Position numbers: made by a program
In this document: positions 12,001 through 15,000 of the stretch, piece after piece
How positions within the stretch are numbered: position 1 is the stretch's first letter
Layout: each line of letters opens with the position of its first letter
UHGV virus genome: UHGV-0106067
Length of the DNA stretch: 62,562 nt
Direction: 5' to 3' (one strand)
Origin: a virus

Positions 12001-15000
12001 CGATGGGCTGTGTGTCCAGGATTAATCATCGCCTCTTACGAACGCAGGGAACGGTCGAACCTCTTCCGCCTCAACTCTGCCGTCATCAAAGGTTTTGACG
12101 TAAATTTCACGTCCGACAAGAAGCGCTTTACTGATCGCGCTCTGCGCCACACCAAAGTCCTTAGCGGCTTTCTTCTGACCGAACCTGTATACGTAATCAG
12201 CCAGGGTCTCTTTTTTCATCGCCATAACTGACTCCTTCAAAATGCCCATATCATTACGCACAGTTATTAAAATGTCAACACCGCAGATATTTCATTACAT
12301 ATAACCAAAGGTGATATGGTATGAACATGAAAAAGAAACCGTTAACCCCTGAGCAACTGGAAGACGCCAAGCGTCTGAAAAGTATTTTTAACGCTAAAAA
12401 GAAAGAGTTAGGCCTGTCGCAGGAATCATTAGCCTATGAATTAGGTGTTACCCAAAGCGCTGTTAATCAGCTAATGGCTGGCATCAACGCCATAAATGCC
12501 AGCCACGCAGCACAGCTTGCTAAGATACTGAATGTAAAGGTCGGAGATTTCAGTCCCAGCCTGGCAAAATCTATTGCAGAAATGGCGCTCGCAATTGAAG
12601 AGCCATTAACTCGTGTCCCCGCTTACGAATATCCGTTACTCTCCTGCGTACAAGCTGGCGCATTCTCAATGGATGATATTTCGTACACCGCAAAAGATGC
12701 GATTAAATGGATCTCCACCACCACAAAAGCCAGTGACAGGTCGTTCTGGCTGGAGGTCAAGGGGCATTCAATGACCGCACCGCAGGGTGGTAAACCCAGC
12801 TTCCCTGAAGGTATGCTGATACTCGTTGACCCTGAACGGGAAATCGAGGATGGCGATTTTTGCGTGGCCCGAATGAACGGCGATGAATTTACCTTCAAAC
12901 GATTCATTCGTGAGAGCGGTAAAGCGTACCTGGAGCCGCTCAACCCACGATTCGACATGATTGAGTGTAACGAAAACTGCCAGTTTGTCGGAAAGGTCAT
13001 CAAATCGCAGTGGAATGATGATACTTTTGATTGAGCTCACAGAGCGATATTAATAACCTTGCCGGGAGATGCTTGGGAAGCGATTTTCTGGCATTATTAT
13101 CTGAGTTGCCCACAACCTATAGAGTCTTACATGAAAAAATCATTTGCTGTATTGTTCGTTTTGTTGTCACTGGTAGCTTCGACTCAATCATTCGCTGGTC
13201 GTTGCCAACACGACAATGATACCGCTGCTGACGGCTCTCGTTGTGGTGGTCGTTCTGCTGATTCTCGTCCTGGCGGTGGTGGTATTCGCTAAAAACAAGG
13301 CCGCTTTCCCGGCCTTTATTTCAATACGTTCAGACAGAATTTTTGGCCTGTTGTTAACTAGTAACCTGAAGAGACGTTTGGGTGATGTTTGGGTGATTTT
13401 AGTTGTGATTAACGAAAACTATGGTGCAACATCTTATAGTAAATTGTTAATATAACAAGGTATTGTATCAAATGAGCCAAAATCTTGATTCAACACTAGA
13501 AACATACATCTCTTGGCAGTTAGAGCAATTTAAGGATAAATTTTTCCCAAACTGTGACGTCATTGCGTACTACGGTGGCATCTTTCCATGGTCAAAAGAA
13601 GTTTACCAGCCAAAACTTGAAGCTATTGGTGAGATGGCTAACAGTCGTACCAATAAATTTCTTGTTATTATACTCAATACAAACGGTGGTTCTGTTGAGT
13701 CTGTAGAAAAAATGGTAGAAATTACAAGGCATTTCTACCAAGAGGTATATTTTATCATTCCAGACATGGCTATGTCGGCAGGTACAATATGGTGCATGTC
13801 TGGAGATAAAATTTACATGGACTATGCTTCTTCATTAGGACCTATTGATCCTCAAGTGCAATCGTCGGACGGTAAATGGGTTCCCGCTTTGGGATACCTT
13901 GATAAAGTTGAAGAAATGATTAATAAATCCAGAGAAGGAACCATTACCCAAGCTGAACTGATGATGCTTAGTCAGTTAGATCTGGCGCACTTGCGGAGAT
14001 ATGAGCAAGCCAGAGAACTATCAATAGACTTGCTTAAGAAATGGCTTGTGGAGTATAAATTTAGAGAGTGGACAGTTCATCAGGGTAACACAAAACGAGG
14101 AAAGCTAGTTACCAAGAGGGAAAAGGAAGCGAGGGCTAAAATGATCGCTACCGCTCTTAGTGACAACGGAAAGTGGCATTCTCACGGAAGAACGATAGGA
14201 ATAAACACTCTTATCAATGACTTAAGGATAAAAGTAGAAGACTTTACATACGATAAAGATTTTAGCATGGCGTTAAAAAATATACATAACGTCATTAATG
14301 AATACATGTATAAAACAAATCGACAGGTTCTTGTTCTGTCTTCTTTCCCTTTTCCAGAACAAAGTGAGTCATAAATGAACAAAGACAAATCCCTGACACA
14401 ACAAGTGGAAGAAATACTTAGCAAGCAAAAAGTTAGCGAGCAAGGAAAAATGATTCAATCATTAAAGAACAGGGGCTTGATCAACAAGCCTGTTTTTACT
14501 TTGGCTTATGGACCAGATATTACAACCTGCCAAATGCACCAATAACAAAACCCGGCCTTGGTGCCGGGTTTTGTTTGCCTCCTGCTCGCCCCACCATTTA
14601 CCAGTGCGCCGTAAATTCCCCATTCTTCGTGGCGGTGAGGATGTCAAAGACGAAGGGAACATTAAGCCCCTGTGTGATGGTTGACTTCTTTTTCCAGCGC
14701 CTTATTAACAAAGGCGTTCAGTGATAAATCTTCTTCCATCGCCATTTCTGCTACCCGACGATGCAGTTCTGGATCAAGCCTGACGTTAAACACACCTTTA
14801 AACGGGGTATCAGGCTCCTTTCCATCCTCCACACAAGACTGTAAATACAGCTCAACCGATGTCTTAAACTCCTGTTCCAGTTCAGCTAATGTAGAAGCCT
14901 CATAAGTTACCAGGTCTCGAATAAACGCCAGTTTTCCGTACAGGATATTATTTTCAAAATCTGGTTCTACTGTACCTAAATACCCTTTATATTTTAGATG

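Follow-up and report, generated by a model that had tools for sequence, protein, structure and literature searches.

A portable gene pair encoding a ClpP-fold protease and a conserved micro-protein in the rex position of an Escherichia coli prophage, a candidate anti-phage or toxin-antitoxin-like system

In phage lambda, rexA and rexB are located between cI and pL/N on the cI strand and form a two-gene unit that ends at a terminator, and cargo located directly downstream of cI is expected to be expressed in lysogens, as lambda Rex. The equivalent slot was analysed in the virus genome UHGV-0106067, a stretch of DNA of 62,562 nucleotides (nt) referred to here as the window, where it contains a gene encoding a 300-amino acid (aa) protease followed by a gene encoding a 56-aa partner protein. 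The original prediction, made before any database search, described in this slot a three-gene cassette: a short signal-peptide open reading frame (ORF) overlapped by an alternative-frame transmembrane peptide, a Clp-fold serine protease and a 56-aa ORF, which could act together in phage exclusion or abortive infection. Our analysis shows that the real unit is a portable two-gene module, made of the protease and its translationally coupled 56-aa partner and closed by a terminator. The assignment of the slot to the rex position was borne out, with lambda-like E. coli prophages, among them LHM10-1 and CP52E, showing the order cI, protease, 56-aa ORF and N.

The likeness to RexAB is one of position and layout. 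Pfam, NCBIfam and PHROG scans of the module gave only protease families and no homology to RexA or RexB; the two systems show no relation in sequence or fold, and the putative effector of the module is a protease. Neither the protease nor the partner has a transmembrane segment (maximum 19-residue hydropathy of 1.17 and 0.51, respectively), therefore the module has no RexB-like channel, and the protease is predicted to be soluble and cytoplasmic.

The closest catalogued defence system is FS_HP_SDH_sah, reportedly a pair of a hypothetical protein and a PF01972 protease encoded by a phage-inducible chromosomal island (PICI). It is listed as an anti-phage system in DefenseFinder and is mentioned in a paper of 2026 as well as in the supplementary tables by Mordret et al., according to which it was detected only 6 times in a RefSeq-wide survey. 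The protease family already has, in this entry, one catalogued defence system, and the earlier statement that a protease with small partners in this slot is not a characterised system was overstated, since a PF01972-based two-gene system is listed. Compared by description only, both systems join a PF01972 protease to a hypothetical-protein gene on a phage-related mobile element. They differ in the carrier, said to be a PICI for FS_HP_SDH_sah and a lambdoid prophage immunity region for all inspected E. coli copies of the module, and in abundance, with 6 detections against 325 clusters (E<=1e-30) for the protease subfamily of the module, found by an exhaustive hidden Markov model (HMM) search of 1.84 billion representatives. 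On this description the module probably belongs to a different subfamily and may have a different gene order, although it may yet prove to be a member of the catalogued system. No PICI copy was found among the E. coli contexts, and no E. coli match exists for a metagenomic locus next to an integrase gene (L131).

Two further groups of described systems share its general design. Type II toxin-antitoxin (TA) systems and TA-type abortive-infection systems, such as HicAB, are likewise small, coupled, co-directional genes which are solitary, mobile and patchily distributed and occupy prophage accessory slots; in the module, however, the putative toxin is a protease and the putative antitoxin shows no DNA-binding domain. 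In the Pepco, MBL and EACC1 protease-effector modules (PMC12642450), a protease gene also adjoins a gene for a small protein that is a possible substrate, although their proteases are trypsin-, caspase- or subtilisin-like and fused to sensors, while that of the module has a ClpP fold and no sensor domain.

The module consists of the following features, with positions given in the window:

13384-13471, + strand, leader travelling with the module, 82% identical to the LHM10-1-type cI-protease spacer
13472-14374, + strand, 300-aa protease of the SDH type (PF01972) with a ClpP/SppA fold, according to Pfam, PHROG, AlphaFold2 (AF2) and Foldseek
14375-14545, + strand, 56-aa partner protein (phrog_28875), whose start abuts the protease stop
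14544-14575, both strands, bidirectional intrinsic terminator that closes the module and the convergent hicBA operon

The protease matches PF01972 with 44.2 bits (gathering cut-off 31.3, E 1.6e-11) and phrog_11747 at 6e-99, while its score for the NCBIfam equivalog NF047768 is 57 bits, below the cut-off of 250. This score, far below the cut-off, indicates a distinct and divergent subfamily, although RefSeq nonetheless uses the family name; the profile searches proposed with the original prediction thus gave a family match to PF01972 but no equivalog match. PF25145 (NfeD1b_N) scored 29.3 bits against a cut-off of 40 in the Pfam scan of the protease. The AF2 model, built on 20 sequences, has a predicted local distance difference test score (pLDDT) of 88.6 and a predicted template modelling score (pTM) of 0.87, and a Foldseek search against PDB ranked Bacillus subtilis SppA first and ClpP next (E about 1e-5, TM-score 0.4-0.5). 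Pfam, AF2 and Foldseek together bear out the Clp fold of the proposed 300-aa serine protease. SppA (family S49), the best fold match, is a self-compartmentalising ClpP-fold serine protease, and by its title the structure 4kwb shows the active sites occupied by a C-terminal peptide, which provides a model for a peptide plug. It differs in being membrane-bound and processing signal peptides, the TM-scores reach only the values given, and the module protease has an extra helical C-terminal domain with an invariant WHSHGR motif.

In a sequence profile search of PDB, the top match was the 1510-N protease of P. horikoshii (E 2.5e-5), an NfeD-type enzyme. Ser102 of the module protease (AMSAGT) aligns with the active-site Ser of 1510-N, a position which is Ala in the 6m4b chain, and a Lys is found about 41-43 residues downstream of the aligned nucleophile. 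The substrate of 1510-N is the stomatin encoded with it in one operon; the protease is membrane-anchored, whereas both module proteins are predicted to be soluble and the 56-aa partner belongs to no known family. Residues S102, D144, K145, H238 and R240 are invariant, and D126 is present in 19 of the 20 sequences. For the putative active site two arrangements are possible: a Ser-Lys dyad like that of 1510-N and SppA, or Ser, Asp and His in the order that the family name implies. Comparison with the 93.7%-identical LHM10-1 copy shows 46 synonymous and nine non-synonymous codon changes, and the protease gene is under strong purifying selection.

The identity of a prohead (head-maturation) protease was considered and rejected. 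NF045542 reached 24.9 bits with a cut-off of 120, head-protease PHROGs gave only 1e-7 against 6e-99 for phrog_11747, and the gene is located in the immunity region and not among portal, scaffold or capsid genes. In a 90%-clustered collection, 4451 relatives of the protease were found at E<=1e-5. A sister group among the library proteins (P0345, P0349, P0350, P0368 and P0369) is longer at the C-terminus by about 100 aa, with two CxxC pairs in a zinc-ribbon-like arrangement, and the library protein P0363 has a C-terminal extension with two 'K.GADY.IEPALG.G' repeats which faintly recalls the partner motif and is not detected by the partner HMM. Distant PF01972 homologs in Porphyromonas and Gordonia phages have a small ORF upstream, not downstream, and HicAB is also found near the distant homolog in Porphyromonas phages.

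The protease stop codon and the start codon of the 56-aa ORF abut (TAA|ATG) in the same frame; the proposed tight coupling and link to the protease stand, but the stop-start overlap that had been described does not. The N-terminal half of the partner is a variable charged helix, and its C-terminal motif (...GLINKPVFTLAYGP...) is conserved, with the form ...GL(I/L)xxP(x)F(T/N/D)LA(Y/C/S)GP in Enterobacteria and G-(L/I)-(I/V)-x-K-P-x-Y-x-L-P-x-x-D-T-I-G-(K/R) in other phyla. The Pfam scan gave no family for the partner. In the large collection every one of its relatives is a separate protein of 51-115 aa with the label 'hypothetical protein'.

Several other matches of the partner were discarded. 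An ArgR-like match scored 16.8 bits against a cut-off of 27 and is at odds with the single long helix of the AF2 model; matches to designer pentatricopeptides among PDB profiles were sums of ten repeats with an E of about 10 per stretch, in which one amphipathic helix was matched, and are an artefact; and an apparent mimicry of the SSLGPIDPQ strand of the protease itself arose from a MAFFT misalignment, with an hhalign probability of 0.7%. Three apparent natural protease-partner fusions (P0234, P0366 and P0325) seem to be gene-call artefacts or to result from deletion or read-through. Within the 56-aa ORF, over the conserved GLINKP codons, a terminator-like hairpin followed by GTTTTT is found at 14473-14491 (+ strand), which may be coincidental or an attenuator.

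Conservation of the pairing was examined in the loci of the 80 best of 485 protease relatives, obtained in a one-genome-per-species scan of about 185,000 species genomes, and in 57 viral contigs. In each of the 80 genome loci a same-strand ORF of about 55-90 aa has its start no more than a few bases from the protease stop. With an iterated HMM built from the 56-aa protein, a homolog was detected in 78 of 82 loci, each time immediately after the protease and at no other position. The same HMM recognises 34 of the 57 viral contigs, the others having divergent small ORFs of the same build or reaching the contig end. Overall, a small ORF built along the same lines comes after the protease in essentially all of about 135 loci, from at least 15 phyla, and the protease and the 56-aa protein form an old, obligatory pair. 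Of the co-occurrence expected for the three proposed genes, this part was overwhelmingly found, while the signal-peptide ORF failed to co-occur outside the prophage lineage of the window.

The terminator at 14544-14575 has a perfect 13-bp stem and a 6-nt loop, with an A-run on one side and a T-run on the other. The folding free energies are -21.2 kcal/mol (+ strand) and -23.1 kcal/mol (- strand), with z about -4.7, and none of 200 shuffled sequences folded as well, in full agreement with the strong bidirectional terminator first proposed. Upstream of the protease no convincing sigma-70 promoter was found, only 9/12 promoter-like sites, none of them conserved across lineages. In the LHM10-1-type phages the gap between cI and the protease is only 72 bp and has no hairpin, and expression of the module from pRM is plausible; co-transcription of the window module from pRM, as originally suggested, is also plausible.

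The 80 best genome relatives belong to Proteobacteria, Bacteroidota, Acidobacteriota, Planctomycetota, Gemmatimonadota, Spirochaetota, Omnitrophota and other phyla, with 47-67% identity. Their flanking genes are not conserved, the nearest neighbours being mostly housekeeping genes with a few defence-like or insertion sequence genes, and 77 of the 80 loci lack an adjacent helix-turn-helix (HTH)/S24 gene. In the window, the GC content of the module is 38%, against 49.5% for the whole. A different context is found in viruses, where in 34 of the 57 loci a cI-like HTH/S24 gene ends less than 500 bp upstream on the same strand; Pfam searches of the viral neighbours found 22 distinct S24 proteins and 33 HTH_3 proteins, in addition to Cro-type proteins and N-peptides. 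Clustered at 60% identity, the upstream repressors form 18 groups, and proteases that are 85-100% identical adjoin repressors sharing less than 40% identity. Among complete E. coli genomes, 17 of 5426 carry the module. All inspected copies are in lambdoid prophages that show cro, cI, protease, small ORF and N or early leftward genes; they lie downstream of four different repressor proteins, and one is in a plasmid-borne prophage.

The other features of the slot and its surroundings in the window are:

12321-13034, + strand, cI-type repressor with HTH_3 and Peptidase_S24 domains (Pfam), which defines the slot and gives its context
13131-13292, + strand, 53-aa ORF encoding a secreted peptide with two Cys (phrog_14503), annotated as 'transmembrane anchored protein'
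13297-13316, hairpin directly 3' of the 53-aa ORF, folded on both strands, -10.8 kcal/mol (+) and -16.4 kcal/mol (-)
13365-13385, + strand, scar left by a different repressor gene; CCTGAAGAGACGTTTGGGTGA translates as 'PEETFG*' and corresponds to the 3' end of a lambda-type cI
14662-15006, - strand, HicB antitoxin (Pfam HicB, 7.5e-20), convergent with the module
15003-15257, - strand, HicA toxin (Pfam HicA, 8.4e-10), convergent with the module

The window is a Stx-phage-like E. coli prophage. The chromosome of strain UCPROB-001 contains positions 13040-14600 with 100% identity, and the cro-cI region of the window is 98.9-99.6% identical to that of Oslovirus-type Shiga toxin (Stx) phages such as P13374 and TL-2011c. 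The module sits between cI and the leftward early genes. The scar shares 19 of 19 nt with the cI end of the LHM10-1 prophage and, when translated, gives the C-terminus of that repressor; the next 80 nt are 82% identical to the LHM10-1 cI-protease spacer, and the homology of the portable unit begins at about 13384. As the cI scar and the LHM10-1-like spacer show, the module was therefore brought in from a different immunity region by recombination and still has a remnant of its former neighbour. Phages that share the cI of the window (P13374, VT2phi_272, Ss-VASD and GER2) carry in this slot a BsuBI methylase and endonuclease, a type II restriction-modification (R-M) system, and the protease cassette is therefore allelic to a known defence system. 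Taken together, the pair is horizontally acquired and mobile and, in enterobacterial prophages, goes to the rex slot.

Decay variants were found in E. coli. Three genomes, including FHI_NMBU_10 (locus L144, 3893-4184), keep the partner and the terminator after the same cI and have lost the protease; in FHI_NMBU_10, a sibling prophage with the same cro, a near-identical cI and the same HicAB, about 20 nt of the protease 3' end are left ('QSSEP*'). Two further carriers have a broken protease, one by an ISEc52 insertion and one by a frameshift. In total, five E. coli carriers lost or broke the protease and kept the partner, and a broken partner was found in none.

The 53-aa ORF does not belong to this module. 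Its product has an N-terminal signal peptide and two Cys, and the ORF exists as proposed, although its start is at 13131 and a start at 13059 gives only a TTG-extended form. Homologs with 74-85% DNA identity occur in the phages TL-2011b and EC.W1-9 and in the Klebsiella phage ST512-KPC3phi13.3, where the ORF comes after an antirepressor and two hypothetical genes, with no protease nearby. In the aligned loci the conserved frame is that of the signal peptide (MKK.FA.LFVLLSL...FAG.CQH..DTAADGSRCGGRSADSRPGG), with changes mostly at third positions. The overlapping 'single-TM peptide' at 13216-13455 was rejected, three homologous loci having neither an ATG nor a hydrophobic stretch in that frame; since the signal-peptide frame is conserved and the transmembrane frame is not, it is a frame artefact. 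The stem right after the ORF stop is kept in the homologs; it is weaker on the + strand, and a terminator scan flagged the - strand only. The loop of this hairpin is CTTTCC in the window and GC-GAAA-GC in the homologs, which looks like an inverted hairpin top. Among all loci fetched, the 53-aa ORF and the protease occur together only in identical copies of the prophage lineage of the window. Because it has its own hairpin, is found elsewhere without the protease and is absent from other protease loci, the 53-aa ORF is an independent moron with its own terminator-like hairpin, separate from the protease, and the proposed three-gene cassette was not upheld. Its product is predicted to be a small exported peptide, which corrects the annotation as 'transmembrane anchored protein'.

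As for function, we favour the reading that the module is a lysogen-expressed conflict cargo, a phage-exclusion or abortive-infection system built like a TA pair, and give it an even chance of being right. This reading is based on the position, the allelism with an R-M system, the neighbouring TA system, the foreign GC content, the patchy cross-phylum distribution and the solitary two-gene architecture. The argument from position made in the original prediction was supported, with a type II R-M system in the slot of same-cI phages and HicAB next door. In the proposed working, the partner would be made in a fixed proportion to the protease and would restrain it through its conserved extended C-terminal motif, as a pseudo-substrate or a slowly cleaved substrate. 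Infection would then deplete the partner, or a phage product would displace it, and the freed protease would cleave a conserved cellular or phage protein, so that phage production stops. We infer this whole working, from restraint to release and cleavage; proteolytic activity, interaction between the two proteins and an effect on phages are likewise predictions. A more far-reaching version is that the module represents a new, self-contained class of TA-like abortive-infection modules, disseminated horizontally in at least 15 bacterial phyla, in which a ClpP-fold protease is the toxin and a micro-protein of about 56-80 aa is the antitoxin, plugging it or being turned over through a motif of the Y-x-L-P-x-x-D-T-I-G type, and which enterobacterial lambdoid prophages use next to the repressor as an alternative to RexAB or R-M; this version is tentative, and we consider it possible but rather unlikely.

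Several observations weigh against a conflict function. Neither the protease nor the partner has a match in PADLOC (v2), nor does the 53-aa ORF, and nearest-neighbour family counts, which are non-quantitative, gave no clear defence-island signal around the non-phage copies. The Pfam scan recognised no DNA-binding domain typical of antitoxins in the partner, and AF2 on a protease-partner fusion did not dock the partner, with a pLDDT of 56-68 for the helix and below 50 for the motif region, a model too uncertain to be informative. Expression in the lysogen of the window is uncertain, because a moron and a hairpin lie between cI and the protease and there is no strong promoter of its own. The decay pattern fits a costly effector and a harmless neutraliser and gives a weak hint in this direction, but it is not statistically meaningful, because the two targets measure 903 and 171 nt and the chance probability is about 0.4. 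No experimental work on this protease subfamily was found in the literature, and the protein accessions appear in no paper. Finally, a non-conflict function could explain the strong conservation of the protease among phyla just as well.

The alternative that survives best, although we regard it as improbable, is a purely selfish addiction module with the protease as toxin and the small protein as antitoxin, which would stabilise the carrier DNA and have no anti-phage role. The solitary two-gene cassette amid housekeeping genes in many phyla, the translational coupling of the two genes, the adjacent HicAB and the decay variants that lose the protease first would all be expected of it; it accounts less well for the recurrent repressor-proximal slot, common to R-M systems and, in lambda, Rex, and for a partner that has no recognisable DNA-binding domain for autoregulation. 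Because TA and abortive-infection roles are not exclusive, this explanation differs from that of a conflict cargo only in phenotype.

The main mechanistic rival reverses the roles of the two proteins: the partner would be a latent toxin or a source of fragments, cleaved at its conserved motif when infection is sensed, as in protease-Pepco or protease-MBL pairs. In its favour, cleavage could take place at the extended motif of the partner, three E. coli genomes tolerate the partner without the protease, and 1510-N, which among solved structures is the nearest relative in sequence, cleaves the protein encoded next to it in its operon. However, cleavage would set free a short helix that is highly charged, poorly conserved and devoid of hydrophobic or enzymatic features, and the partner is therefore unlikely to be the effector. 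A precedent exists in small latent effectors which are activated through C-terminal cleavage by an adjacent protease (PMC12642450), but these known modules use trypsin-, caspase- or subtilisin-like proteases fused to sensors and the protease studied here has no sensor domain; we assign this alternative a small chance.

A non-conflict function, in which a dedicated peptide-processing or proteostasis protease works with a chaperone- or adaptor-like partner and serves the prophage as a fitness moron, has a slender chance. A protease about 50% identical across phyla, with many copies between housekeeping genes, would be in keeping with such a role, but carriers are scattered (485 species genomes out of about 185,000, and 17 out of 5426 in E. 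coli), the GC content is foreign to the window, the neighbourhood is not conserved and the module has been repeatedly swapped between unrelated immunity regions. Control of lysogeny, by cleavage of the repressor or another regulator in an ImmA/ImmR-like manner, would turn the cI adjacency of 34 of the 57 viral loci into a functional linkage; we consider this very improbable, given that cI proteins have their own S24 self-cleavage domain, that 85-100% identical proteases lie beside unrelated repressors and that nearly all genome loci (77 of 80) have no HTH/S24 gene next to them. The adjacency of the three ORFs on one strand in the window prophage and its identical copies speaks for a system in which the signal or transmembrane peptide, the protease and the 56-aa protein act together, but such a system is hardly credible, since the 53-aa ORF has its own hairpin, is missing from all other protease loci and occurs without the protease in TL-2011b, EC.W1-9 and Klebsiella phages, the transmembrane frame is not conserved, and the peptide is predicted to be exported and the protease to be cytoplasmic.

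Other elements were found around the slot. HicAB is a second accessory cargo piece in the same slot as the protease module, and its operon has a promoter with a perfect sigma-70 consensus (TTGACA-17-TATAAT) at 15315-15287 on the - strand. Sequences of the ATTAATAAC/GTTATTAAT type occur at three sites of the window: 12258-12273 in the cro-cI intergenic region, 13047-13062 just past the cI stop, where the P13374-type homology ends, and 16198-16220 upstream of the Rha gene. These repeats could be operator-like sites that bracket the slot. Rfam searches identified an IsrK Hfq-binding small RNA at 16002-16077 (+ strand, 61 bits against a gathering score of 50), followed by a C4 antisense RNA at 16102-16189 (+ strand, 77 bits against a gathering score of 45). 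Both RNAs lie directly upstream of a Rha/antirepressor-like gene (16244-16891), in an arrangement that resembles the C4-ant control module of the P1/P7 type.

With an unusual conserved micro-protein as partner, and yet located in a slot where defence cargo is expected, the pair is a good candidate for an anti-phage or TA-like system. The partner is kept from Enterobacteria to Bacteroidota and Acidobacteriota, and such small genes are easily missed in annotation; it also offers a simple handle on function, through pseudo-substrate inhibition or cleavage. If phage exclusion is its true role, a protease-based two-gene system would join RexAB, Stk, BstA and R-M systems among the rex-position cargo of lambdoid phages, and a mechanism would be supplied for a poorly understood PF01972-based entry of DefenseFinder. 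As the carrier is a Stx-phage-like E. coli prophage, the cargo in this slot would affect which phages superinfect such lysogens.

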